A program made the translations under genes and the position numbers. A DNA stretch of 64,000 bases, taken from the NCBI GenBank assembly GCA_963833555.1, contig CAWHYB010000007.1:388739-452738 (forward strand), given 5' to 3'. The notes under the pieces were generated by a model. The model was given only the letters and a program-made list of their open reading frames with translations, made no database searches and was not told where the DNA came from. This document shows positions 8,307 through 41,767 of this stretch, one piece after another. Source of the stretch: an uncultured Actinomycetes bacterium (GTDB taxonomy: Bacteria; Actinomycetota; Thermoleophilia; UBA2241). Every line of letters starts with the position of its first letter. Positions within the stretch are counted from its first letter, which is position 1.

Positions 8307-11300
8307 TCACCGAACGGTCAGCTTCGTGATGCCGATCTTCTGCTGGATGTTCCCGGCCACATCTGTCGCGTACAGTCGCAGGCTGTAGGTACCGCGCGCC
8401 AAAGGCGCCGGCATCTCGAACAGAAGGGACTTGTTGGTCGGGCGCCGACCCAGGTTCCAGGTGGCGACTGTACGGCCACTCGAGTTGCGCACGAGCAGCC
8501 TGACCGTCGCCAACCCGCAGCTCTTCGTGCCGTCGTTGATGCGGTAGCGATAGTCGAAGAACCCGCCCGCCCGCGCCGACAGCGAAGTCGACACCGCGAG
8601 TAGCGGCCTCAGGGTATCGACGCGCACCGTGATCGTCCCTGTCGCCTTGTTGAGCACGCCGTCGTAGCGCGTCTCCGTGATCACATGCACGCCGTCGTTG
8701 GTCTGGTCGAACACGCCCGGCACGTAGAGCGTCGAGTCGGTCTCCTTGACCGCCTTGTCGACCGAGAAACCCCAGCCGACGAAATGGATGTAGCTTTCGG
8801 GATCGACCGTCAACGGGACGAAGCCGCAGCCCTCCCCGTCGTCCGCGGTCGCCTTGACGGTGGTGACCGCCGCGTTTGTCCAACCCGCCTTAGCGTCATC
8901 GGCCAGGACCGGCGGGGCCGTGTCGACACCGTAGGGGACCGTGAGGTAGTCCTCGGCGTTGCCGACCTTGTCCTGGGCATAGGTGACGAGATCGTACTTG
9001 GCCACGGTGCTCTTCGGCGCCGCGACGCTGATCTGCGTCATGGCGACCGGCTGGCCCGCGACAATGCGGTAAGTCTTGTCGACCCCAGCTCCATCGTCGG
9101 TCGCGTGGAGGTTGATCGTCCGCGGGATGCTCGTCCAGTACCGGCCAGTGGCATCGCCCGGGATCTGGGCCCAGCCGTGGTTGAGATGGATGTCCGGCGA
9201 TTCCTTGGGGAACACGGGAGCGCTGGTCGGTGCCCAGGTGTCGTTCTGGAAGACGTAGACGCGCCCGTTGGCGGGCGCGGCCGGGTCGTGTGCACCGACC
9301 ACGAGGTCGACCACGCCATCGGCGTTCAGGTCGCCCGAGGTCAGACCCTCGACGGTCCCGCTGGGGATGGACAAGTCGAGTGCGTCCGCCAGCGCGCCCG
9401 TGCCGTCGCCGGCCATGATGCTGACGCCGGGGCCGGCGGTGTGCGGCGTGGTCGCAGCGACGTCGAGCTTGCCGTCGGTCGTGAAGTCCGCGACCACGAT
9501 GCGTCCGGCACCGGACGCACTGGTGGCCGTGATCGCCGTCCCGAACCCGCCATTGCCGTTGCCGGGCAGCACGGCCAGGTTGCCGGCGTCGGCGCCGGCG
9601 ACGAGGTCGAGCCGGCCGTCGCGGTTGAAGTCGCCGAGGCCGACGTCGCGCGGGGCGAAGGGCAGCGTGACGCTGCTCGCGGCGCCGAACGCGGCGGTGT
9701 CGTTGCCGAGCGCCACGGAGACGGTGGTGGCGCCGTGGTTCGCGACCGTGAGGTCGGGGCTGCCGTCGCCGTTCAGGTCGCCCAGCGCGAGCCCATCGGG
9801 CTGCGAGCCGACGGCGACGTCGACGTGGGCGGCGAAGCCGCCCGCGCCGTCGCCGAGCAGCACCGAGACGCTGTTGCCGGCGGCGTTCGAGGTGAGCAGG
9901 TCGAGGTTGCCGTCACGGTTCACGTCGCCCGTGATCACGCGGACCGGTCCGGCTCCGGTGGCGTAGGCGACTGCAGGGCCGAGCGCGCCGCCCGGCTGCC
10001 GCAGGGCTACCCGGACTACGTTGCCGGCCGTATCGACGACGGCTGTATCGAGCAGTCCGTCATGGTTGAAGTCCGCGACGCAGACGTCGTCGCCGGCCAG
10101 CTCGGCGGTCGCGGACGAGAACGGCGCGACCTTGCCGATCGCATCGATGCCCGCCGACTGGAGCAGCGACTGGGTCGAGACCAAGTCGGGCAAGCCGTCG
10201 GTCACGCCACCGGGACCGGACACGTCGGCGATCGCCATCGCCTTGAACTCGTTCGCGCCAAGGTCGGTCTGCACGGCCGGCTCGAACGCCGCGCCGTGAC
10301 GGATAGGCCACGTCTTGCGCAGCACTGACATCCGGTCGCTGCCGTAGTCGGCGACGAGCAGATCCGCCGCGCCGTCGCGGCTGACGTCGGCGGCGCAGAG
10401 AGCTCCGGGGCGGTCACCCGCGGCATACGTCGCCACGGTCTGGTCTGCAGCAGCGAGCTCCCAGAACGGCGTGCGATAGCGGCTGAGCGCGACCTTGATC
10501 ACGTCCGAGCCGGGCACGGAGGCGACGATGTCGGGGACGGTGTCGCCATTGACGTCGGCGAACACCATGTCACCGGGGTTGCCGAAGCCCGACCAGACCG
10601 GCGACTCCTTGTCCGTCCCGACGACAAAGCTGCGCGCGCCCACCGCGGACTGACGCAGCACCCAGATCTCGTTGATGGTCCAACTCGCACCCACGATCTC
10701 GGTGAGGCCGTTGTGGTCGTAGTCCCCCACGTACAGCGCCATCGGACCATCCGGCACGCTGCACGGGGACGACGCGGTGAAGCCGCCGTTCCCATCGCCG
10801 TACCAGATGCCCAAGTTGTCGGTGAAGTCGGGGAAGCGCCGGAAGTACGTGGCGAAGACGATGTCGAGCTTGCCGTCCCCGTCGGCGTCGACGATCGCGA
10901 TCTCCCGCGGCCCTTCGTTCAGGAACGGCGCCACACCGGAGATCGGATGGGTCGTCGCGGTGAAGACGCCGGGGGCCGCCTGGGTGAGGATCGAGATGCT
11001 GGCCCCGCCGTAGTTCGTGACGGCCAGCTCGAGCCGGCCGTCGGTGTTGAGATCGCCGGCGGCGAGCCGGATCGGCTCGTTGCCGACGGTGACGGTCTGC
11101 GGGGCCTCAAAGTCGCCGGCGCCATTGCCCAGAAGAATCGTCACCGAGTTGGACCCGTAGTTGGCCACCGCCACGTCCTGCTTGCCGTCGCCGTTCAGGT
11201 CGGCGGCGAGCACGTCGACGGGCTCGGCCCCGACCTTGAACGTCTTGGCGGCCTGGAACGTGCCGTCGCCCTTGCCGAGCAGCAGCGAAACGGTGCCGGC

Positions 11301-30171: not shown

Positions 30172-30989
30172 GACCGCGCCGTCGCAGGCCGTCCACGGGC
30201 TGCCACGGGCGCATCGCCGACGTGCAGCGCCATGGCGCCGAAGCCGAAGCGCCGATAGCGCACGTTCCGCAGGCCGGCGCGCGCGCATCACGGCCGCCAG
30301 GCCCGTCGGCGTCGGGGAACGAGCGGACCGAGGCCGGCAGATACGCGTAGGCGCTCGGCGTCGCCGGCGACCAGGGCGCCCAGGGCGGCACGACCACGCT
30401 CGAACCAGATGGCGTGGAAGCGCCGGCCGAAGGCGCCGGCGCGGCGTCGTCGCCTCGAGACAGACGACGCGCGCCCCCGGGCGCAGCCACGCGCGACCAT
30501 CTCGGCGAAGGCGCGGTCGAGGTCGGCGACGTTGCGCACGCCCCAGCCGACCGTCACGGCGCCGAAGGTCGCGTCGGCGAAGGGCAGCGCGAGCAGGTCG
30601 CCGGCGAACGAAGCGTACGGCAGCGCCCCGCGACGGCGCGGGCGGCCTTGGCGCGCGCCCGCGCGAGCATCGCCGCGCTGAAGTCGAGCCCGGTGACGGC
30701 GCGCGGCGGGATAGCGGCGCGCGCAGCGCCAGCGTGAGATCGCCGGTGCCGCAGCAGGCGTCGAGCAGCGCTGTGCGCCGGCGGCGGCGCGGCGGCGACG
30801 CGCCGCCGCCGCGCGCCAGCGGCGGTCGAGCCCGGCCGTCATCAGCCGGTTCATGAGGTCGTAGCGCGGCACGATGCGGTCGAACATCGCGGCGATGCGC
30901 TCGGGGTCGCGATCGGGCTGGGTCGCGCGACCATCCGTCGCCGTCGCCGTCGCCCTCCGCAGACCCGGGGGGCGATGGACATCGGTCAC
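30168..30989 (-). CDS. menG: demethylmenaquinone methyltransferase (UbiE/MenG); frame-interrupted
   Basis: MFDRIVPRYDLMNRLMTAGLDRRWR, LLDACCGTGDL, FGAVTVGWGVRNV and the GAMALHVG ending. GTG 30989 overlaps the ubiX stop. Confidence 0.75.
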
Positions 30990-31593
30990 TGCGGACCCTC
31001 CCACGGCGGCGAGAGGCGCTGCTCGAAGCCGAGCGCCGCACAGCACCTTGCCGACCACGAAGTCGACGACGTCGTCGAGCGTCCGCGGGCGCGTGTAGAA
31101 GCCCGGCATGGGCGGCACGATCAGCGCGCCCGCGCGGCGCGCCTCGAGCAGGCGCTTCAGGTGGATCTCGAGAGCGGCGTCTCGCGCGGCACCAGCACGA
31201 GCGGGCGGCCCTCCTTGAGCGCGACGTCGCCGGCGCGGTGGATGAGCGTGCGCGTCGTGCCCAGCGCGATGTGGGCGACGCGTCGACAGCGAGCACGGGC
31301 AGACGACCGCGGCGTCGGGGAAGTTGCTGCCGCTGGCGACCGGCGCCTCGAGGTCGTCGGGGGCGAAGACGCGCGCCTCGGCGCGGGCGGCGGCGAGGAA
31401 CGCCGCCGTCACCTCGGCGCGCTCCGCCAGCGCCGAGCTCGAGCTCGTGGCGCAGCACGGCGAGGCCCATGTCGGAGACGCAGAGCGAGAGCTCGCAGCC
31501 GCGCCGCCGCGAGCGCTCGACGAGCCGCAGCGCGTACGGGGCGCCGCTGGCGCCGGTGACGCCGACGAACAAGCTGGCGGGTGGTGCGATCAC
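30986..31593 (-). CDS. ubiX: flavin prenyltransferase UbiX; frame-interrupted
   Basis: N-terminus [17 protein letters not shown]; [24 protein letters not shown]; C-terminus [13 protein letters not shown] recovered after a 1-nt shift. Confidence 0.75.
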
Positions 31594-31654
31594 GAGACTC
31601 CTTCGATGGCGTCGGCACCCGGCGCCGCCGCGAGCGGCCGCCGGAAGACTCCCG

Positions 31655-32931
31655 CTAGTCTACCGCTCGCGCGACGGCCCCATGTGGGACCGACTGCGTT
31701 GACGAGCGCCGGAGCCGCGCCACGACCGCAGGCCCGGCGCAGCGGCCAAGCTGCCGCTCGTCAGTGTGGCGGACTGCCCGGCTGTGTGGCAGTCGCCGCC
31801 GTAGCAGCTCGCCGCGCCGCCGTCGTTGTTGCCGTGGCACTTCACGCAGACCGCGCCCTCGCGCGCGGCGTACACGAAGTGGCTGGCGATGAACGCGGCC
31901 GGGTGCGGCAGCACGACGCCGTGGCACTGCACGCAGCTGTCCGCGCCGTGGCACTTGCTGCAGAGCGCGGGATCGCTGCGTCGCGGTGGTCGGGTGCGAG
32001 GCAAGCCAGCCGGCCGGGTGCGGCATCGGGAGGCCGTGGCAGTCGATGCAGAACTTTGGGTCCTTGTCGGTGTGACACGAGGCGCAGATCTGCGCGCCTC
32101 GCTGCACGACCAGCGGGCCGTGGGACTGCGTCCAGCCCGGCGGGGTGCGGCATCGTGAGGCCGTTGTGGCACTTGGCGCAGAAGCTGCTGCGTGTGGCAC
32201 TGACGGCAGTTCGCCGGCTGGTCCATGTGCACGGTCGATGGTGATCTGCGCGGTGCCCGGCGGGCACGCCGTTGACGTGGCAGATCGAGCAGCGCTGCGG
32301 CTGGATGACGCCGTTGTGGCACTGCGCGCAGATCGACATGATCGACTGCGTGCGGCCGCGAGCCGACCGGGATCGCGGCGCCGTGGGCGACCTCGGCGTG
32401 GCAGGTCACGCACTGGAAGCCGGCCTCGCGCAGGCCCTTGTGGTTGACGCGGATGTTGCCGACGATCGATGTCGCTTCTCGATCTGGCTCTTGGGGTGAC
32501 ACTGCACGCAGTTCTCGACGCCGACGTAGGTGGTGATGCGGCCTTCTGGTAGTCGCCCCGAGATGTACTCGACGATGTGGGTCGGCCGACTGCAGGTTGC
32601 GGATGAAGTAGTTGAAGACGCCCGGCTTGGTGTGGCAGTCCTGACAGCCGACTCCCGGCCGATGGTGTTCAGACGTCTTGAACGAGGCGACCTCCTTCTT
32701 GATCACGTGACACCAGCCGCACGTGCGCGTTGTTGTTGACGACCGCGAAGCCGATCGGTGACCAGGACGAGGAGCGACGCACGACGGCCGGCGATCATGC
32801 CGAGCAGCCAGGCCCGCGGTCGATGCGGATGGCCGCATCGGCCCGCGGCGTGCGGGCCGCATCCGCCGCGCGCCTCGTCGGGCGGCGCGGCCGGCACGTG
32901 TGGCTGGCTGGTCGTCGGGTCGTCGGCTCAT
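31655..32931 (-). CDS. membrane-anchored NapC/NirT-like multihaem cytochrome c, 13 CXXCH + 1 CX4CH; frame-interrupted
   Basis: N-terminal hydrophobic anchor, then CGWCH, CQDCH, CVQCH, CVTCH, CAQCH, CSICH, CRQCH, CAKCH, CASCH, CIDCH, CSKCH, CVQCH, CVKCH and CYGGDCH. I confirmed 14 CH codon pairs on the plus strand. ATG 32931 lies 3 nt after the upstream stop. Confidence 0.75.
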
Positions 32932-32934
32932 GAC

Positions 32935-33982
32935 CTAGAGCGCGCGGTGAGGATCGAGGGTGACGGCGTCGCGGCGTCGGCGTCCACTGCGGCACGCCTG
33001 CCGGTCGAGGAAGTCGTGCGCCTGCGGGCTGCCCGACTGGTGGGCCGGTGGCACGCCTGGCAGTTGGCCTGGTCGTGGCAGTTGAGGCAGCTCGTCGACG
33101 AGGCGGCGGCCGCTTACGGCGCGTGCTCCAGCCAGTCGGCCGGGTGCGGCAGCGGCACCCGGTGACAGCCGTCGCAGTATGGCGGCTCGTCGTGGCACTG
33201 CGTGCACGACTTGAGCGCCGAGCTTCAGCGCGCTGGCTGCCGTGTGCGCGTGAGCCAGTCGTCGGCGTGCGGCATGACGACGCCGCGATGACAGTCGACG
33301 CAGTCCGGCGGCGATCCGGGGACACCAGCCGGTGACCGCACCGCCCGGTCGCGGGTGGCAGGCGCTGCAGGTCGACAGGATGCCGTTCGGTGCCGTGGGT
33401 CTTGAGCCAGTCGGCCGTGTGACGTGCTGGGCCTGGCGCCCGCCGCGCGGCGCTGACGTGACAGAGGTCGCAGCGGCTGACGCGCGACCGTGCCGTCGGC
33501 CGCGCGGTAGTGGTTGTTGTGACACACCAGGCACTTGTCCATGGTCGGGTAGCGTCCGCGAGCCCGGCCGGGCACGGCGTCGCCGTGGGCGACCGTCGAG
33601 TGGCAGGTCGATGCACTGGTAGCCGGCCTCGATCAGGTGCTTGTGGTTCACGTTGATGCCGTTCTTGGAGATCGTCGGGAACAGCTTGCGTCGGTGTGGC
33701 AGCGCCGGCACGACGCGTTGACGCACCGTGCCGAGGATCGGGGTCTCGTAGTCGCCGGTGATCTGCTTGACGGGCTCCTGCAGCGCCTCGAGCTTGGCGG
33801 TCAGGAAGAAGAACGGACCCGGCTGCGATGGCACTGCTCGCAGTTGACGCCGCTGTGTGCACGACTGTGCTGGTACGCCGACGACGCTCGGCCTTCATGT
33901 TGTGGCAAAGCCCGCAGAAGGCGGTCGTCGAGGTGGCGACCAGCGCGACGCCCGTGACCACGACGAACGCCGTGACGACCAC
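32935..33982 (-). CDS. membrane-anchored NapC/NirT-like multihaem cytochrome c, 12 CXXCH; frame-interrupted
   Basis: TM (AIVVVTAFVVVTGVALVA), then CGLCH, CEQCH, CRRCH, CIDCH, CLVCH, CDLCH, CSACH, CVDCH, CTQCH, CDGCH, CLNCH, CQACH. The true start is probably a little upstream (to about 34010) after a frame change. Confidence 0.7.
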
Positions 33983-34041
33983 GATCGCTGACGATGAGCA
34001 GGCGTCGTGTCAGATGAAGGTTCAGCTTCGCTCCCGCTCCA

Positions 34042-35229
34042 CTAGTTGATCAGTCCACCGGCAGTGGGGAAGGCGTTGTGCACGGCGCTCCTGTGGCAGA
34101 GCAGGCAGGGCAAGCCGACGGCATGGGCCGTGGCCGAGCCGTGGCAGCGCACGCAGCTCGAGCTTGACGGAACGATCTTGCGTCCGTGGAACGCGCTGCC
34201 GTGGCAGGTACCACACGTGAGCCCGCTACCGCGGCCGCTGGCATGCACCTGGAGCGCGTGGCAACGCCGGCAAGCGACCGCCGCATGGGTGACCCGCCGG
34301 GAGTGGACGATGGCGTTGCCCGCGGCCGCGTTGGTGCCGCGGTGGCAACTCGCGCATTTCGTGGCAGGGATGCGCCAGGTCGCGTGCGACATCGTGTGGC
34401 ACTTGGTGCAGGCCGGGAAGCCGGGACTACGCGTCACGCCGTGGTGGAACTGCTTGGCCTTGGTGTGACAGGTCGTGCAGGCAACGCGCCCGGCGTGCTT
34501 CTGCAGCCCCGTGTGGCAGGTCGTGCAGGCCCCGACCGCCGGACTCGTGGTGTGGACCGTCTCGCGCTGGAAGATGCCGGTCGCGCTGTGACAGTCGGTG
34601 CACGTATTCGTGCCGTAGGTCTTCGCCGCGTGGCACTTGTTGCAGGTCGCCGGCTGCACGGGGATGTCCATGCCGTTGTGGCAGGACGTGCACGCTGGCT
34701 TGACCGAGTCATGATTGGCCTTCTGCGAAGCCAGCGTGCCGTTGTGACAGTCCTGGCAAGCCGGTGCCGTGAGCGTCATGCCCGCGTGGTGGGGGCTGCC
34801 GTCGGGAGAGCTGAACCCCGTGCTCACACCATGGCACGTGGTGCACGGTGCGAAGTCGGCGCCGAGATGAGGTGTAGCACCGTGGCTGAACTCGATCGAG
34901 TAAGCCCGCTGGCTCTCGTTCCAGAGGTGACAGGTGCTCGAACAGCCTGCGCTCGTGCGCCACGCGGACGTGTCTTGGCCGGGCTGATGGCAGCTCCAGC
35001 AGGTGTCACCCGGCACCGACTTGAAGTCGCTGCCGTGACAGGCCGTGCACGACGCGTCGCTGGGGCCGGTAGCGTGGCAGTCACTGCAGGCGGTGGCGCC
35101 GTCGTGCTCCCAGGTGGTGAAGGCGTGCGCGGGCGCGGCGGTGAGCGCGCTCACCGCCGCGCCCGCGCACAGCAGCGCAAGCATGGCGACAAGCAGCGGC
35201 ACGCGACCGGCGAGGATCCTGCTGGTCAT
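34042..35229 (-). CDS. secreted multihaem cytochrome c, 16 CXXCH + 1 CX3CH in 395 aa
   Basis: Uninterrupted ORF segment with SD GAGGGGG 7 nt before ATG 35229. Sec signal peptide ending AAPAHA. Motifs were counted directly in the translation. Confidence 0.85.
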   Translation of the reverse strand: MTSRILAGRVPLLVAMLALLCAGAAVSALTAAPAHAFTTWEHDGATACSDCHATGPSDASCTACHGSDFKSVPGDTCWSCHQPGQDTSAWRTSAGCSSTCHLWNESQRAYSIEFSHGATPHLGADFAPCTTCHGVSTGFSSPDGSPHHAGMTLTAPACQDCHNGTLASQKANHDSVKPACTSCHNGMDIPVQPATCNKCHAAKTYGTNTCTDCHSATGIFQRETVHTTSPAVGACTTCHTGLQKHAGRVACTTCHTKAKQFHHGVTRSPGFPACTKCHTMSHATWRIPATKCASCHRGTNAAAGNAIVHSRRVTHAAVACRRCHALQVHASGRGSGLTCGTCHGSAFHGRKIVPSSSSCVRCHGSATAHAVGLPCLLCHRSAVHNAFPTAGGLIN

Positions 35230-35291
35230 CGGGGAACCCCCTCGTAGACGGCAGACAAGCGCCACTCTACCAAGTCCTTTACGCCGGAGCA

Positions 35292-36188
35292 TCACAGCGA
35301 GATCGCCACCGACCAGACGATGAAGGCCGCAAGCGCCAGCGCCGCCAGGATCGCGACGAAGGTGATGACCCACGACACGACGTTGCCCACGATCGCGCCG
35401 CGCCCGCTGGGCGCCAGGACGATGGCCTCGTCGAGGGTCCCCTCGCGGATCCGGTTGGCGTATTCCAGTGGCCGCTCGAGACGGTAGTGATCGACCGGGA
35501 TCGAGCCGGTGAAGATGACCTTGTCGATGGGGAACGAGCCGGGCCGCCCGTGAGCGCTGAACAGGTGCACGAAGATGAAGATCACGCCCATCGCCAGCAG
35601 CGCCTCGTTGGAGTGGATCACGAGCGCGATGTTCAGGGCGATGCCCGGAAGGAACTTCGTCGTGGTCACAGGGAACCACATCATGAAGCCGGTCGCGCCG
35701 ATGATCACCGTGCCCGCCATCATCGACCAGAAGTCGAACTTCTCCCAGTACGTGAAGCGGTTGAACTGGGGGAACGGGCCCCTGCCGAAGAACCACCGGA
35801 ACATGCCGATGATGTCCAGCGCGTCCTTCTTGCTGGGCACGATCGAATCCGGGCCGAAGATCCGGCCGCGGACCTTGACCACGTGCACGCCCATGTAGCC
35901 GAGCTCAAGCAAGAAGTAGAGGATCGTGACGAGGGCCGCCAGACGATGCAGCACGCCGGCCGCCGTGACGCCGCCGATGGCGCCCATCACCCAGTGCGCC
36001 CAAGCGGCGTCCTTGTACTTGAGCGGCATGCCGGTGAACACGAGCACGGTGAAACTCGAGAGCGCCAAGAAATGCATCCAGCGATGGAACGCGTTGAAGC
36101 GCCGGTAGTGCAATCTCTCGTGCTGCTGTTTGTCAGTGCGACTTGTCGTAGAGACCTTGTCTACGACCGCGCCAGAAGTAGAGGACAC
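35292..36188 (-). CDS. FdnI/HydC-like (Ni/Fe-hydrogenase b-type cytochrome family) membrane cytochrome b
   Basis: RFNAFHRWMHFLALSSFTVLVFTG opening typical of PF01292-type cytochromes b. Further histidines lie in predicted helices (LHRLAAL, VIHSNEA, FVHLFSAH), and there are 5-6 TM helices. GTG 36188 has a GGAGGAG SD 6 nt upstream; the ORF is open to TTG 36215. Confidence 0.75.
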   Translation of the reverse strand: MSSTSGAVVDKVSTTSRTDKQQHERLHYRRFNAFHRWMHFLALSSFTVLVFTGMPLKYKDAAWAHWVMGAIGGVTAAGVLHRLAALVTILYFLLELGYMGVHVVKVRGRIFGPDSIVPSKKDALDIIGMFRWFFGRGPFPQFNRFTYWEKFDFWSMMAGTVIIGATGFMMWFPVTTTKFLPGIALNIALVIHSNEALLAMGVIFIFVHLFSAHGRPGSFPIDKVIFTGSIPVDHYRLERPLEYANRIREGTLDEAIVLAPSGRGAIVGNVVSWVITFVAILAALALAAFIVWSVAISL

Positions 36189-37008
36189 TGTGCACTCCTC
36201 CGAAGGTGAAGACAACGGCGATGAGCAGGACGTAGAACATGTACACGAGGAACACCGGGATCGACGATCGCGGTGACGTCGCGTTCACGTGGACGAGGTA
36301 GCTCGCGAATGCGGCGTTCGCGCCGGGATGGCATTTCGCGCAGGTCGCGACGATGTGCTGCTTTGAGATCGGTGCTGCGTGGGTCCGACGGCGGCAGGAT
36401 CTTGATGCGCACCGTGGCAGTCGTAGCAGGTGGCCGCGCCCACCCGACCCAGCTCGAAAGCCTTGCCGTGGTACGTGTCAAGGAAGGTCGCCGCGTGGCC
36501 GCCGTGACAGCCTTCGCAACGCGCCGTCACCTGCTCGCGGAATCGGCGGGTCGTCACGTCGACGACGGCATGCGCATCGTGGCAATCGCCACAGGTCGGC
36601 ACCTTGCCGAACTCGCCCGGCTTCAGCACAAGTCTGCCGTGGAACGAGCCGCGGTACATCGTGCCCTGCTGAGCGTGACAGTCGCCGCACGCGGTGAGCG
36701 AGGCCTGTTCGAACCATCCGCTGGTCTCTTGGGAAGTGTGCTGTCGCGACTGGAAGCCCACATGACAGCTCGTGCAGTCGAGCAGCGAGTGCAAAGAATG
36801 ATCCCAAGCGCTCGTGTCGAGGGCGATGCTCTTCGGTCACGCCGTTCACGTCGACTTGACCTTTCGCGCCAGGCCCATGACACGCGAGACAGCGGTCATT
36901 GTCACGGTTGGCCTGCGCGCCGGCGCTCGTGGGCAGGGCTGCGGTTGCGAGCGCGACCGTGATGACAAGCGCAAGCGCCAGCCGTGCAGGCGCGCGGCTC
37001 GACAACAT
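36133..37008 (-). CDS. multihaem cytochrome c, 7 CXXCH, signal peptide and C-terminal TM helix; frame-interrupted
   Basis: MLSSRAPARLALALVITVALATAALPTSAGA, then CLACH, CTSCH, CGDCH, CGDCH, CEGCH, CYDCH, CAKCH. The C-terminal helix is IPVFLVYMFYVLLIAVVFTFGGV. Confidence 0.7.
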
Positions 37009-37034
37009 CCTGGCTTGTCTGGCTACTGAGCCGA

Positions 37035-38061
37035 TCACGGTGTCGTCACCCCCAGGCGGGCATGGCAGCCGCTGCACATCGTCTGCGGGTGACAGACGAG
37101 GCACGACGCGGTGCCCTTGATGGCGACGGCGCCGTGGGTGGTGCTGCCAGTCGGCGGGATGATCGACCTGGTGGCACTGGTGGCAGAAGGTCTGCTCGCT
37201 ATGACAGCCCTGGCACGAGACGCCGTCGGCCGTCGCGGCCGGTCCGTGGCTATAGCGCCAGTCGCCGGCGAAGTGACTGGCCGGTGGCCGCGCGTGGCAG
37301 GCGTCACAGAAAGCGGCCTTGTCGTGGTGGCAGCGCAGGCAGTCGCTCTCATGGGTGAGCGCCTGGATGCCGTGTGTCTTCAGGAAGTCAGCGGGATGGA
37401 CGTTGCTCGGCGGCGGTGTGGCGTGGCAGGTGGTGCACTGGTTCGGCGCGGCCTGGCCGTTGTGGCACATGGAGCAGACGGTCATCGAGACTGTCGCGTT
37501 CGACTGACCGGGCGTGGCGTGAGAGACCTGGTTGTGGCAGTCGGCGCACTGCAGGTTGTGCATCGTGACATGCGACTGGTGGGGGATCTTGATGCCGTTG
37601 ATGACCGGCGGGAAGTTGCTCAGCTGGTGGCACTGCTCGCAGGCGGCGTCGGTCGGCTTGTGGACGCTCGCTGCCATGTCGGTGCCGGCGCTCAGGTAGG
37701 AGGCCCAGATGTTCTTGCCCTCCTGCAACCGCCAGACGATGCCGTTGATGAGGCCCGGCTCGACGTGACACTTCACACAGGACACGTCGGCGTGCACCGA
37801 GTGTTGCCAGGTGCTGCCGGCGGTCTTCATCTCGTGACACGATGTGCAGTAGCCGGACGTCGAAGTCAGCCGGACGGGGATGTAGAAGACGATCATCACC
37901 ACCGCGAGGACGCCTACCGCAGCAAGTGCGGTCAGCCACCAAGGGATGCTGCGACGAACCGGCGGGGTGCGCGTAGGCGGCGCCGGCGGTGTAGCCGGCG
38001 CCGCAGGCGTGTCGTGGCCGGACGCGTGATCCGGCTCGCGGCTGTCGCCTTCGGCTGCCAT
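37035..38061 (-). CDS. membrane-anchored NapC/NirT-like multihaem cytochrome c, 12 CXXCH; one frame change near 37135
   Basis: TM (WWLTALAAVGVLAVVMIVFYI), then CTSCH, CVKCH, CEQCH, CADCH, CSMCH, CTTCH, CLRCH, CDACH, CQGCH, CHQCH, CLVCH, CSGCH. The ORF is open to GTG 38103. Confidence 0.8.
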
Positions 38062-38116
38062 GCGCTGTGAGCCCCCTGACTCCTGTCCCTCCCCGAACAG
38101 CACTACAGTCCGAGGC

Positions 38117-38134
38117 TTGTGACGAGTGTATCAA
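38117..38134. promoter_or_regulatory. Rex-operator-like site TTGTGAC-GAGT-GTATCAA overlapping the -10 box
   Basis: Matches 10 of 14 positions of the TTGTGAA-N4-TTCACAA consensus (one half 6/7, the other 4/7). A rex gene is encoded 3.6 kb upstream on the same strand. Confidence 0.25.
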
Positions 38135-38152
38135 TCGTCAAAAGAGTGTCAA
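38125..38152 (-). promoter_or_regulatory. sigma70-like promoter candidate for the cytochrome module (TTGACA-N16-TACACT on minus strand)
   Basis: TGTCAA at 38147-38152 and AGTGTA at 38125-38130 on the plus strand. It lies in the 157-nt gap between the prenyltransferase stop and the first cytochrome gene. Confidence 0.4.
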
Positions 38153-38259
38153 ACCGCCGGCGGCCCGAACCCCAAGGCGGTCCCGGGTGCAGCATATCAG
38201 CAGGCTATACGGCGATGCGCCATCTCAGCTGACGGCGCGCCGACGACGCCACGAGTGGG

Positions 38260-39145
38260 TCAGTCAGCGAGCACGGTGACGATCACGACGACGCCGTACA
38301 GCAGGCCGACGACCCCGTTGACCGTCATGAATCCCATGCCGACCCGGCTCAAGGCCGCGTCGCGCGATGTCGACGTGCGACCACGCCAGGATCGCCGCTA
38401 CCACGCAGACAGCCGGCGTAGTAGACAAGCGGCAGTCCAAGCAGCGCGCCGGCCGTCGAGCAGGAGCGACGACTGAGCCAAGGTGAGAGAGGGCGGCGAC
38501 GAGCAGAGCTCGTCGCCGCCCGAACCTGACGGGCACCGAGTGGATGCCCTCGTCGCGGTCGAATCGAGGTCGAAGATCGCGTAGATGACGTCGAAGCCAC
38601 CCACCCACAAGCCGACGGCCACGAACAGCAGGACCGGCGACAGGGCGACGCGGCCGGTCACGGCGACCCAGGCCGCCGCCGGCGCCAGGCCGTCGGTCAG
38701 GCCGAGCGCGTAGTGGCAGAACCAGGTGAAGCGCTTCGTGTACGGGTAGGCGATGAAGGCCGCCACGACGATCGGCCACAGGTACCGGCACGGCGGCGAC
38801 AGGAAGAAGGTCGACAGCACGAGGACGCCGAGCGAGGCGGCAGTGAAGGCGACGACCTCGCCGCGCGCAGCGACGCCGGTCGGCAGCTCGCGCCCGGCGG
38901 TGCGCGGGTTGCGAGCGTCGATGCCGGCGTCGATCAGCCGGTTCAGCGCCATGGCGGCGCTGCGCGCCGCGACCATCGCCACGGTGATCCAGACGAGCGT
39001 CGCCCAGCGACGGGATGCGCTGCTCGGCCAGCACCGCGCCGGCGTACGCGAAGGGCAGCGCGTAGACGCTGTGTTCGACCTTGATGAGGCGGGCGAAGAG
39101 CGCGGGGCGTGCCGACGCCGGTGCGGGGCGTGAGGCGGATGTCAC
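38260..39145 (-). CDS. UbiA family polyprenyltransferase (menaquinone-specific, futalosine route); frame-interrupted
   Basis: LIKVEHSVYALPFAYAGAVL, NRLIDAGIDARNPRTAGRELP (Asp-rich motif), polytopic. Fragments 38264..39145 and 38398..38982. Confidence 0.75.
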
Positions 39146-39173
39146 GGTCGGGTGACGGGCGAGGCGGCGCGCG

Positions 39174-39514
39174 CTAGCGCGCGCCGCCGTTCACGGGCCG
39201 AGGCTCGGTGCCGAACTTGGCGACCAGCCAGCACGACGAAGCCGACGATGACCGCGACGATGGCGACCACGAAGAGGATCGTGTAGAGGAACATGCTGGC
39301 GGGCTGCGCCGCTGCCCAGATAGGAGCTCACGCCCCAGCAGACGACGGCGATCGCCCAGTTGACGATCGACAGGATCCAGAAGCGGCGTGCGGTGCGGAC
39401 GTGGGGAGCGTCGCCACCGGTCGCGGCGGCTGCGGGCTCGTCGGGCCGCGCGGAGGCGGTCGGCACCTCGCCTGCGTCGCGATCGGTGGGCATCTTGTCG
39501 TCCGGCTGCGTCAT
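39174..39514 (-). CDS. small two-TM membrane protein of unknown function; one frame change
   Basis: RRFWILSIVNWAIAVVCWGVSSYL and, after the shift, MFLYTILFVVAIVAVIVGFVVLLVA. No family was recognised. Confidence 0.4.
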
Positions 39515-39610
39515 GTCAGTCAGTGTAAAGAAGGCCGGGCACGCTGTCGAGAAGCCCTGCTGTTGGCCCGAAACGCTCCGACCGGTGGCGGCTGGGAATC
39601 GAGATCGCGG

Positions 39611-41102
39611 TCACGTGCGCCGAAACCCGAGACCCAGTTCGGCCCAGCGACGCGTCGACGCGCGCCATCGACGGCCGGGTCCATGGCGAGCTCGTCGGGC
39701 CACTCGCGGCCGTGACCTTCGTCGGGCCAGGTCCTGGTCGCGTCGATGCCCATCTTGGCGCCGTAGCCGGCCGTCGGGCTCGAGTGGTCGAGCACGTCGA
39801 GCGGCCCGTCGACGATCATCGTGTCGCGGCGCGGGTCGACGTTGTTGAACACGCGCCAGGCGACCTCGCGCGGGTCGTGTACGTCGACGTGCTCGTCGAC
39901 GACGACGACGAACTTGGTGAACATCATCTGTCCCATCCCCCAGACGCGCTCATCACCTTGCGGGCGTGACCGGGGTACGCCTTGCGGATCGAGACCACGG
40001 CGCAGTCGTGGAAGACGCCCTCGATCGGCAGCTCCAGGTCGACGATCTCGGGCAGTGTCAGGCGCAGGAGGGGCAGGAACAGGCGCTCGGTGGCCTTGCC
40101 CAGATAGCAATCCTCCATCGGCGGGCGGCCGACTATGGTGGCCGGGTAGACCGCGTCGTGGCGCATGCTCATCGCGGTCAGATGGAAGACCGGGTAGTCG
40201 TCGGCGAGCGAGTAGTAGCCGGTGTGATCACCGAACGGGCCTTCGCGGCGCAGCTCGCCCTGCTCGACGTAGCCCTCGAGGACGATCTCGGCGTCGGCCG
40301 GCACTTCGAGATCGACCGTCGCGCACGGCGCCAGCTCGACCGGCTCGCCGCGCAGGAAGCCGGCGAACATGAGCTCGTCGATGCCGGGCGGCAGCGGCGC
40401 CGTCGCGGCGTAGGTCACGGCAGGATCAGTGCCGATGGCGACGGCGACCTCGAGCCGGCCGTCGGCGGCCCGGAAGTTCGCGGCCCCATCGTGATGGACG
40501 TGCCAGTGCATCCCAGTGCTCTGCGCATCGTGGACCTGCAGCCGATACATGCCGGCGTTGCGGCGGCCCTCGCGGTCCTTGGTGATCACGACCGGCAAGG
40601 TGATGAACGGGCCGCCGTCGCCCGGCCAGGTCGTGAGTACGGGCAGCCTGCCCAGGTCGGGCGGCTCGACGACGACCTCGCGGAAGGCCGCCTTCTTCGT
40701 CGGCTTCGGCGCGAACGAGGCGAGCTCGCGCAGCTGCCCCAAGGCCTTGACCTTGCTGACCAGCCCCCTGGGCACCTGCAGCTCGACGAGCTCGCCGATG
40801 CGGGCGGCGATCTCGTCGAGTGGCGCGCCGAGGGCCAGTTCGAGCCGCCGGTACGACCCGAACTGGTTCATCAGTACGGGCAGGGGCGGTCCGGACAGCC
40901 GATGGGCGTTGCCGGGCGACGCCACGACCGGCGAGCTGTGACCCGACGCGCTCTCGGGACGCTCGAAGAGCAGCGCGGGACCGTCGGCCTTGCTCGCGCG
41001 GTCGGCGATCTCGGCCATCTCGAGATACGGATCGACGGGCGCCGTCACGACGGCCAGCTCGCCTTCGCGGCGCAGCAGCCCGACGAACTCGGCCAGCCTC
41101 AC
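39611..41102 (-). CDS. UbiD family decarboxylase (menaquinone biosynthesis type); frame-interrupted near the 3' end
   Basis: LLFERPE, GGPFITLPVVITKD, RNAGMYRLQV, FGDHTGYYS, MMFTKFVVVVDEHVDVHD. GTG 41102 overlaps the upstream stop (GTGA). Confidence 0.75.
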
Positions 41103-41767
41103 GCCGGCTCCTTGCAAGCCATGGCGGTGAGTGCGGCGCCCGCGGCGCCGGCATCGTCTGAGCCCGGGTGCTGCGCGTCGGTCTCGACCTCGTGCTCCAT
41201 GCCGAGGGCGGCGCGCAGCGGCTGTGGCCGGCGCAGTGACAGCGACGCCGCTGCCCGCCGCACGACCTGGGGCAGGCGTTCGGCGCGGCCGCGGCCGAAC
41301 AGCGCGCCGACCTCGTCGAAGACACGCAGGGCCGCGAGGCCGCTGCCGCCGGATGCCGACGATGCCATGCCGGCCACGCACAGGGCCCAGAGGTCGTCGT
41401 CGCAGGCGAACGGGCAGTCCTCGGCGCGCAACCAGGAGCAAGTCGCCATCAGCCGGGTCAGCAGGGCGATCGAATCGAGGTCGCCCGCGTCGGCGACCAG
41501 CCGCAGGCCGCTGGCATCGAGGTGGTCGCCGGCGAGCAGCCGCGTCTGCAGCGTGGTGTTCGCGCCGAGCAGGCGGCTCACTCGATAGTGGGTGAGGTAG
41601 CCCTCGTAGACGAGCTCGATGGCCAGGACGTAGGGGTCGGGAGCGGCCTCGGGCGCGAGCGCCCGGAACAGCGGCGCGTAGACCAGCGCGAAGCGCGGCG
41701 GCGGCGCCGTCGCAAACGGCGCCGCCGCGGCCCACAGCGCCTCGCGAATTGCCTGATCGTCGGCCAT
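41099..41767 (-). CDS. hypothetical protein (222 aa) between rex and the UbiD-like gene
   Basis: Uninterrupted ORF, translationally coupled at both ends (TGATG and GTGA overlaps). No family was recognised. Confidence 0.45.
   Translation of the reverse strand: MADDQAIREALWAAAAPFATAPPPRFALVYAPLFRALAPEAAPDPYVLAIELVYEGYLTHYRVSRLLGANTTLQTRLLAGDHLDASGLRLVADAGDLDSIALLTRLMATCSWLRAEDCPFACDDDLWALCVAGMASSASGGSGLAALRVFDEVGALFGRGRAERLPQVVRRAAASLSLRRPQPLRAALGMEHEVETDAQHPGSDDAGAAGAALTAMACKEPA

Follow-up and report, generated by a model that had tools for sequence, protein, structure and literature searches.

A predicted CbcL-type menaquinol oxidoreductase encoded as overlapping cytochrome c and cytochrome b genes in a Thermoleophilia menaquinone operon

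Few routes are known by which electrons leave the quinone pool for extracellular acceptors; CbcL is one of them and serves as a metagenomic marker gene. The protein of Geobacter sulfurreducens (GSU0274, GenBank AAR33608.1, our reference throughout; the accession agrees with PMC9129911) carries nine N-terminal CX2CH motifs and six C-terminal transmembrane (TM) helices, with histidines in TM1, TM2 and TM3 and two in TM5 (PMC6295460, PMC9129911, bioRxiv 10.1101/2021.04.15.440034). Across the CbcL/MtoC/MtrH family the number of CX2CH motifs ranges from 3 to 23, and the survey of 2018 that defined this range found no CbcL homologues in Actinobacteria (PMC6295460); CbcL homologues in Thermoleophilia have already been published (2022). 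Two-gene CbcL-like clusters were described in Carboxydocella thermautotrophica in 2018 (PMC6085454). A second Geobacter system, CbcBA, consists of CbcA (GSU0594), a c-type cytochrome with 7 haems and an anchor at its C-terminus, and of the dihaem cytochrome b CbcB (GSU0593); it is reported to share no sequence homology with CbcL (bioRxiv 10.1101/2021.04.15.440034).

The window analysed here, the whole stretch of 64,000 nucleotides of Thermoleophilia DNA, contains a cytochrome gene pair which the first-pass annotation had read as the logic of CbcL carried by two polypeptides. We conclude that a CbcL-family menaquinol:multihaem-cytochrome c oxidoreductase is probably encoded here in two parts, one per gene, with the break between TM1 and TM2. 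The two-gene form itself is not new: Carboxydocella provides a precedent (PMC6085454), and the architecture is that of Geobacter CbcBA.

An overlapping gene pair with a frame-broken c gene

The following features of the pair were located.

35292..36188, minus strand: dihaem-type cytochrome b subunit gene, 298 aa with five membrane helices, equivalent to CbcL TM2-TM6
36133..37008, minus strand: 7-haem c-type cytochrome subunit gene, about 290 aa once frame-corrected, corresponding to the periplasmic domain and TM1 of CbcL (residues about 1-316)
37008-36910, minus strand: Sec-type signal peptide of the c subunit
36328..36891, minus strand: whole span of the seven CXXCH haem-c motifs
36891-36877, 36776-36762, 36689-36675, 36593-36579, minus strand: CXXCH motifs 1-4
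36518-36504, 36428-36414, 36342-36328, minus strand: CXXCH motifs 5-7
36193-36261, minus strand: C-terminal membrane helix IPVFLVYMFYVLLIAVVFTFGGV of the c subunit, equivalent of CbcL TM1
36192-36190, minus strand: codon CAC of the conserved helix histidine, directly after the helix
36201-36195, minus strand: Shine-Dalgarno-like GGAGGAG, 6 nt 5' of the b gene's GTG
36133..36188, minus strand: 56-nt stretch shared by the two genes, b being read in the +1 frame with respect to c

There is no interruption in the cytochrome b ORF, which extends from GTG 36188 to a stop codon at 35294-35292 and stays open upstream as far as TTG 36215. The c subunit has a signal-peptide-like N-terminus starting at ATG 37008 and ends in the membrane helix followed by a short basic tail, its reading frame being closed by TGA 36135-36133. 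The earlier placement of the b start codon, preceded by GGAGGAG and lying inside the last 56 nt of the c gene, was confirmed. GGAGGAG doubles as the Gly-Gly codons of a conserved FGGVH, directly before the helix histidine, and since it sits within conserved Phe-Gly-Gly-Val codons the presence of the motif is partly forced by coding. Overlaps of various lengths were found in orthologues: 59 nt in L001, 53 nt in L087, 32 nt in L007, L008 and L013, 8 nt in L009, 4 nt in L086 and 1 nt in L011 and L012. The two genes overlap or abut at all split loci with an examined junction, and such pairs recur in independent assemblies, short-read ones included. The c and b genes of the window are probably co-translated, which would give a 1:1 complex. 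An Rfam scan of the whole window gave no matches, and an exact-sequence look-up of the window's b protein returned no record.

Because the b frame is +1 and a read-through product would be collinear with fused relatives, it is thinkable, though more speculative, that some full-length fused CbcL could be made through a +1 shift on the stop codon of c (CAC UGA C). We did not retain programmed +1 frameshifting other than as a low-probability aside, as no slippery or stimulatory signal is evident and the junction geometry differs among orthologues.

The claim of a 7-haem protein held for its seven CXXCH motifs and its membrane helix but not for its single ORF. Three-frame translation showed that the c gene of the window is spread over three frames, and DNA alignment with the intact orthologous genes of L001 and L086 traced this to three 1-nt insertions.

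36828..36843, minus strand: frameshift site 1, a 1-nt insertion in comparison with L001 and L086, GGCGTGACCGAAGAGC
36397..36410, minus strand: frameshift site 2, a 1-nt insertion, CATCAAGATCC; orthologues read CATC-AGATCC
36365..36376, minus strand: frameshift site 3, a 1-nt insertion, AGCACCGATCTC; orthologues read AGCACC-ATCTC

Removal of the insertions gives a 290-aa protein with 7 CXXCH motifs, and all comparisons of the c subunit with CbcL used this frame-corrected sequence. As it stands in the window the c gene is interrupted, and its expression in the host is assumed. Three frame breaks within about 880 bp could also mean that the locus is a decaying pseudogene, with a truly frameshifted c gene and no complex made. 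We consider this very improbable. The three insertions sum to restore the original frame, the correct frames hold no in-frame stops, and all seven CXXCH motifs, the helix and its histidine are kept. Comparable shifts relative to L001 occur in the neighbouring UbiD, UbiA and UbiX genes and in three NapC/NirT-like cytochrome genes, at a density of at least about 12 in about 11 kb; this spread across neighbours favours assembly error over decay of the c gene. Long-read indel errors typically produce scattered shifts of this sort. Moreover, the nearest public relatives come from assemblies with contig_NNNNN names, some of which have broken genes too. We infer that the frameshifts are most likely assembly errors.

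Relationship to CbcL and to other dihaem cytochromes b

Both proteins matched CbcL (AAR33608.1) by BLASTP. The b protein was 39.6% identical over 275 aa (E 2e-61, CbcL residues 343-612) and the c protein 29.8% identical over 272 aa (E 3e-30, CbcL residues 55-316), the latter match taking in the first membrane helix and its histidine. The earlier reading of the pair as CbcL in two polypeptides is borne out by these matches. The split falls between TM1 and TM2, so that the helix total is kept as 1 + 5. NCBIfam and Pfam hold no CbcL-specific model. Judged from these comparisons, the likeness to CbcL is one of homology, beyond analogy; chance is excluded by the strength of both matches together with the recurrence of overlapping or abutting pairs in independent assemblies.

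Multiple alignment with CbcL, a 9-haem protein, shows that its haems 3 and 4 have no counterpart in the c subunit. All seven CXXCH motifs are kept in the aligned 7-haem orthologues of Thermoleophilia/Actinomycetota type, split and fused alike. The TM1 histidine column is invariant in the multiple alignment, and nearly all of 113 fused family members have histidine at this position. Taken across the c and b subunits, the CbcL histidine pattern (TM1, TM2, TM3 and two in TM5) is matched in full, with 99-100% conservation of these residues among family representatives.

Minus strand, 36074 (His39), 35948 (His81), 35615 (His192) and 35567 (His208): codons of the candidate haem-b ligands

The four candidate haem-b histidines had been proposed to align with those of FdnI, and they did. 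A 151-sequence family profile aligned with E. coli FdnI by hhalign (97.7% probability, E 1.5e-12), placing FdnI His18, His57, His155 and His169 in register with His39, His81, His192 and His208 of the b subunit; a shallower b profile gave an identical register. Conservation of these residues among family representatives was 151/152, 162/162, 167/167 and 166/166, respectively, and His213 (35552) is likewise conserved. An invariant YWEKFD loop of the b family aligned with the quinone-site loop of FdnI. The hhalign comparison with E. coli HyaC was not significant with either the shallow (0.5%) or the deep (14%) profile, and a PDB sequence search with a 27-sequence b profile found no matches even at E 10. 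An AlphaFold2 model of b built from a shallow alignment was poor (pLDDT 62.8); Foldseek returned nothing from the PDB at E < 1 for this weak model, only noise of the ABC transporter and STEAP kind.

The alignment with FdnI raises the question of whether b belongs to FdnI/HydC proper and anchors a formate dehydrogenase or a hydrogenase in the membrane. Weak matches to Ni_hydr_CYTB and to TIGR01583 (formate dehydrogenase gamma) point the same way, as does the name 'cytochrome b subunit of formate dehydrogenase' in several JGI sources. The window's b protein, with 29.0 bits, falls just under the gathering threshold of PF01292 (Ni_hydr_CYTB), 30.1 bits; most b orthologues have a precomputed PF01292 match, and CbcL itself has none at E 0.001. 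The TIGR01583 score is 29 bits against a cut-off of 116 bits, however, and the b protein is only about 20% identical to FdnI, whereas its identity to CbcL is about 40%. Its partner, presumably co-translated, is a multihaem cytochrome c, and neither the window neighbourhood nor the syntenic loci hold genes for a molybdopterin or NiFe catalytic subunit. Membership of FdnI/HydC proper is accordingly extremely improbable.

CbcBA was considered as a closer relative on account of its 7 haems, C-terminal anchor histidine and two genes. Both systems encode a seven-haem c, ending in a histidine-bearing membrane helix, immediately upstream of a b-type cytochrome, and the pair might on that ground be a CbcBA-type complex with no relationship to CbcL. 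Yet both window proteins are clear sequence homologues of CbcL. In addition, the b subunit shows four ligand histidines in five helices, against three histidines and four helices in the description of CbcB (CbcBA being GSU0593/GSU0594, set apart here by its published description), and the Pfam annotations of the syntenic loci that are intact include no sigma-54 (BccR-like) regulator. The Geobacteraceae relatives are 9-haem fused proteins, and this, with CbcL matching both halves, led us to drop CbcBA, an assignment that we regard as very unlikely.

Relatives and gene neighbourhood

At least 596 species genomes contain the CbcL family, for the most part with the c and b domains fused in one protein. 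Thermoleophilia, Nitrospirota and other groups repeatedly have split forms, fused 7-haem forms were found in related Thermoleophilia, and further relatives occur in Burkholderiales (Rhodoferax, Ramlibacter, Rubrivivax). Soil metagenome-assembled genomes (MAGs) of Thermoleophilia commonly carry split and fused forms, in contrast to the survey of PMC6295460. That the in-frame fusions P0018, P0076 and P0086 are frameshift artefacts was ruled out by fused 7-haem ORFs in independent assemblies.

In several genomes the fused 7-haem protein is a paralogue adjoining a split pair. One fused-form locus, L006, has a k141-type contig name and is apparently a short-read assembly.

The pair lies in a cytochrome cluster within a futalosine-type menaquinone biosynthesis operon. 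Three NapC/NirT-type multihaem genes flank it, as the first-pass annotation had noted, and the neighbouring cytochromes have 12 to 16 haems. The module consists of six cytochrome genes with about 60 c-haem motifs, in addition to the two presumed b haems, between UbiD/UbiA and UbiX/UbiE, and the same cluster, intact and in identical order, was found in L001, L086 and several Thermoleophilia MAG loci.

This setting invites a wider reading, which we put forward tentatively and, taken as a whole, hold to be unlikely. On this view a conserved respiratory module of Thermoleophilia, embedded in the operon and produced along with its quinone, would wire menaquinol to the cell surface, and the split pair would serve as one of its entry points. 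Actinomycetota would then have an extracellular electron transfer route that has so far not been characterised. Within the module, the near-invariant histidine of the c helix would complete the cytoplasmic-side haem/quinol site of b, making the complex an obligate heterodimer.

Proposed electron path and comparison with known systems

Haem binding, complex formation, the quinol site and the direction of electron flow are predictions from sequence. The b subunit would bind two b haems, one on the outer side through His81 and His192 and one on the cytoplasmic side through His39 and His208. In NiFe hydrogenases the C-terminal helix of the small subunit packs against HydC. The c-subunit helix may pack onto b in a comparable manner, parallel to what has been proposed for CbcA with CbcB, and its histidine would then come to lie near the cytoplasmic-side haem and the quinone pocket. 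Menaquinol would be oxidised near the cytoplasmic face, where we presume the quinol site to lie from one profile alignment, that of the YWEKFD loop with the FdnI quinone-site loop, and from the FdnI structure. Electrons would pass from menaquinol through the two b haems across the membrane to the seven c haems outside, from where the 12- to 16-haem cytochromes encoded nearby would accept them. This path would amount to an FdnI-type loop in reverse, in which membrane potential is spent, a cost that would fit the reported low-potential, low-yield role of CbcL.

The same machine could also run backwards as a quinone reductase, passing electrons from extracellular donors such as Fe(II) to the menaquinone pool. 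Nothing in the sequence fixes the direction, and reverse flow has already been proposed for MtoC and MtrH, which form one family with CbcL, a family that occurs in Fe(III) reducers as well as in Fe(II) oxidisers (PMC6295460); the Burkholderiales relatives are compatible with it as well. Geobacter CbcL, however, the sole member characterised genetically and biochemically, acts in quinol oxidation (PMC9129911, bioRxiv 10.1101/2021.04.15.440034), and the Fe(II)-oxidation genes Cyc2 and MtoAB were not recognisable in the 20-kb syntenic context. Reverse flow is thus doubtful, and we prefer quinol oxidation as the role of the pair.

The pair is a real module of an already known kind; it adds a member to the family and leaves the general picture unchanged. 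Two practical points follow from its form. Searches that demand the c and b parts in one protein can miss split CbcL, and the natural cut after TM1 offers a ready-made construct for probing the fifth histidine of CbcL.

Among known systems CbcL is the nearest, both halves of the pair being homologous to it and collinear with it. Shared features are the signal peptide, the multihaem c domain, the membrane helix with its conserved histidine, and an FdnI-like b domain with four ligand histidines, a sixth C-terminal helix and the invariant YWEKFD loop; the presumed task, electron transfer from menaquinol to periplasmic or outer cytochromes, is also the same. Unlike CbcL, which is one polypeptide with nine haem-c sites, the enzyme described here would consist of two polypeptides cut after TM1 and carry seven sites, a number inside the published family range. 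Its host belongs to an Actinomycetota lineage, and its genes stand in a menaquinone biosynthesis operon, adjacent to three 12- to 13-haem NapC/NirT-like cytochromes and a 16-haem cytochrome.

With the FdnI and HydC/HyaC cytochromes (PF01292) the b subunit would share the four-helix dihaem core, with the same four histidine positions, and, if the packing proposed here is right, it resembles the hydrogenases in receiving a helix from its partner subunit. It differs in having an extra C-terminal helix and a cytoplasmic segment, a multihaem cytochrome as partner in place of a catalytic dehydrogenase, and a likely role in quinol oxidation, not quinone reduction.

CbcBA, a proposed low-potential quinol oxidase under sigma-54/BccR regulation, likewise combines a seven-haem c subunit with a histidine-donating C-terminal anchor and a separate b subunit, the c gene coming first. 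The Carboxydocella clusters, by their published description, also place a dihaem b gene next to a multihaem c with one membrane helix, in a Gram-positive host, and have been proposed to carry electrons from quinol to the cell surface (PMC6085454). They belong to Firmicutes whereas the present pair belongs to Actinomycetota, and the likeness between them is drawn here from that description.

The overlapping gene pair and its c frame

All genes of the region lie on the minus strand of the window, whose G+C content is 68.6%. The features of the pair and its junction are listed in order of transcription.

Between 36891 and 36328, minus strand: seven CXXCH motifs (sequence)
Within 36843-36828, minus strand: 1-nt insertion 1 in the c gene (alignment to the DNA of two intact orthologues)
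Within 36410-36397, minus strand: 1-nt insertion 2 in the c gene (same alignment)
Within 36376-36365, minus strand: 1-nt insertion 3 in the c gene (same alignment)
36261-36193, minus strand: coding DNA of the C-terminal helix of the c subunit quoted in the first-pass annotation
36201-36195, minus strand: SD-like GGAGGAG, 6 nt 5′ of the b start codon
GTG 36188 to stop 35294-35292, minus strand: cytochrome b ORF, intact, 298 aa
36135-36133, minus strand: TGA stop, end of the upstream cytochrome c frame
34051-35220, minus strand: 16-haem cytochrome gene, intact, directly downstream of cytochrome b

The first-pass annotation had described a seven-CXXCH c gene overlapping a cytochrome b gene. This was borne out: the genes overlap by 56 nt, with the b frame +1 relative to the c frame, and the b ORF starts at GTG 36188, in agreement with the start implied by its database copy (P0001, 298 aa). 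The SD-like motif falls on the Gly-Gly codons of a conserved FGGVH. Pair, overlap, helix and SD-like motif were all present, but the c gene is not a single ORF, its pieces occupying three frames. With the three insertions removed, the gene encodes 290 aa, comprising a signal peptide, all seven CXXCH motifs, the C-terminal helix and a basic tail.

Searches by tblastn with the proteins of one intact syntenic locus detected further frame breaks. They affect UbiD, UbiA and UbiX, the gene of a small membrane protein and each of the three NapC/NirT-like genes, and bring the number to at least about a dozen in 11 kb (30200-41200), the seven-haem c gene included. The cytochrome b and 16-haem genes are intact within this stretch. 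Since functional motifs are all retained and essential quinone biosynthesis genes are affected too, the breaks are probably assembly indel errors, of long-read type by their look, rather than gene decay. If so, any ORF-based reading of the region needs frame correction.

Homology to CbcL and the candidate haem-b ligands

Both halves of the pair are homologous to CbcL. Identity to CbcL is 39.6% over residues 343-612 for the b protein (E 2e-61) and 29.8% over residues 55-316 for the frame-corrected c protein (E 3e-30); the latter match takes in the first membrane helix of CbcL plus its histidine. The reference was reached with a Geomonas protein, which retrieved a G. sulfurreducens protein whose 90% cluster includes AAR33608.1, the accession of cbcL (GSU0274) according to Antunes et al. 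(PMC9129911). In a multiple alignment, haems 3 and 4 of CbcL have no counterpart in the seven-haem form; elsewhere the two are collinear. [quoted passage not shown] Judged by sequence, the pair is a CbcL homologue broken between TM1 and TM2. The proposal of CbcL logic carried by two polypeptides was therefore right, and the underlying observation real except for the broken c ORF.

A 27-sequence profile matched E. coli FdnI with a probability of 52.7%, and a 151-sequence family profile with 97.7% (E 1.5e-12, FdnI residues 5-207). In both, FdnI His18/57/155/169 aligned with His39/81/192/208 of the window b protein, so that all four candidate haem-b histidines found a counterpart among the FdnI ligands. 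Family representatives keep His39 in 151/152, His81 in 162/162, His192 in 167/167 and His208 in 166/166; His213 is kept in 153/166 and His35 in just 59/150. Almost every fused member has the histidine of the c-part helix, and the sequences of the multiple alignment share it without exception. The invariant YWEKFD motif of b aligns with an FdnI loop which we take to line the cytoplasmic-side menaquinone pocket of FdnN, a structure reportedly described by Jormakka and colleagues in 2002; this favours a quinol site close to the cytoplasmic face, short of proof.

Split and fused relatives

Relatives of the b protein at 60-80% identity number in the hundreds in metagenomes. With each species represented by a single genome, at least 596 genomes proved to encode a relative. 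Among those with a name, Thermoleophilia MAGs come closest (57-69% identity), followed at 39-48% by Nitrospirota, Geobacteraceae (Geomonas, Trichlorobacter), Burkholderiales, Bacteroidota, Caldithrix, Acidobacteriota and others. Judged by synteny and identity, the window's host probably belongs to Thermoleophilia or to a closely related lineage of Actinomycetota. Most of those genomes encode one long ORF with an N-terminal multihaem c domain and a C-terminal b domain; the Geobacteraceae protein has about 615 aa and nine CXXCH. Fused proteins of 924-947 aa with 19 CXXCH occur in Bacteroidota, Caldithrix and one Actinomycetota MAG (L018, L044, L061, L064), and their haem domain seems to have grown by internal repeats.

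At every split junction examined, the two genes overlap or abut. Overlaps measure 56-59 nt in the window and the syntenic locus L001, 53 nt in a short-read contig, and 32, 8, 4 or 1 nt in other Actinomycetota. Nitrospirota have a gap of 2-8 nt between the stop and the start codon. Relative frame also differs (+1 or −1). What is conserved is thus the tight coupling, not the precise geometry of the junction. The Nitrospirota loci (L016, L017, L033, L045, around position 10000) encode 9-haem split CbcL homologues whose c gene ends ...KGGG-stop, the Gly codons (GGAGG) also serving as ribosome-binding site for a b start 2-8 nt on. Their split is independent, with a junction unlike that of Actinomycetota.

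Several Thermoleophilia genomes carry, in one cluster, a split pair and a fused seven-haem CbcL of about 600-635 aa; both forms therefore coexist as paralogues. The fused copies lie between UbiD and UbiA:

L005, 8359-11011
L006, 2347-4149
L010, 8972-10879
L014, 9008-10840

The split b protein of the window is 62-66% identical to these fused copies, versus 42-45% to the split copies of the same genomes.

Pfam and NCBIfam lack a CbcL-specific model, and the b domain of genuine CbcL (P0335/P0391) gave no match to Pfam PF01292 at E 0.001. Annotation of the family is unreliable: its members carry public names as different as 'cytochrome c3 family protein' and 'cytochrome b subunit of formate dehydrogenase'.

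Operon setting, proposed function and known systems

The intact syntenic loci L001 (on a 634-kb contig) and L086 (a 10-kb JGI contig that stops just past the last NapC/NirT-like gene) share the order UbiD, small membrane protein, UbiA, 12-haem NapC/NirT-like, seven-haem c, cytochrome b, 16-haem cytochrome, then 12-haem and 13-haem NapC/NirT-like genes. UbiX and UbiE follow in L001, and beyond them a polyprenyl synthase and futalosine-pathway genes; the cytochrome cluster therefore lies within a menaquinone biosynthesis operon. The same six cytochrome genes occupy about 30200-41100 of the window, between UbiD/UbiA and UbiX/UbiE, and the arrangement is kept in several Thermoleophilia MAGs (also L007-L010, L013, L014). 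A listed ORF at 34042-35796 (584 aa) extends the 16-haem gene too far upstream, across the b gene in another frame. The entire cluster within the Thermoleophilia menaquinone operon is a loose end of more interest than the c/b pair.

The pair is most likely a two-subunit menaquinol:cytochrome c oxidoreductase. Two b haems would be stacked across the membrane in the b subunit, and a helix packed on b, supplying the TM1 histidine of CbcL, would anchor the exported seven-haem subunit. From menaquinol, electrons would flow out to the c haems and then to the large cytochromes encoded nearby. A cytoplasmic-side quinol site like that of FdnI would make the loop spend membrane potential, which would agree with the reduced growth yield ascribed to respiration through CbcL. 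Electron flow may run inward instead: sequence does not fix the direction, and the CbcL-family MtoC and MtrH are found in Fe(II) oxidisers (PMC6295460).

CbcL homologues were already noted in 8/19 Thermoleophilia MAGs (bioRxiv 10.1101/2022.03.26.485925). A 2018 survey listed none for Actinobacteria (PMC6295460), a gap that we suspect is partly owed to its c-type-cytochrome-based screen. A two-gene CbcL-like arrangement is known in Carboxydocella (PMC6085454), so the window pair adds a member to a known kind whose split form is already published. Geobacter CbcBA has the same architecture (seven-haem CbcA with C-terminal anchor and His, plus CbcB) and is set apart by its published description as non-homologous to CbcL (bioRxiv 10.1101/2021.04.15.440034). 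By homology the window pair belongs to the CbcL/MtoC/MtrH family; it differs from CbcL proper, a single chain with nine haems, in being split and having seven.
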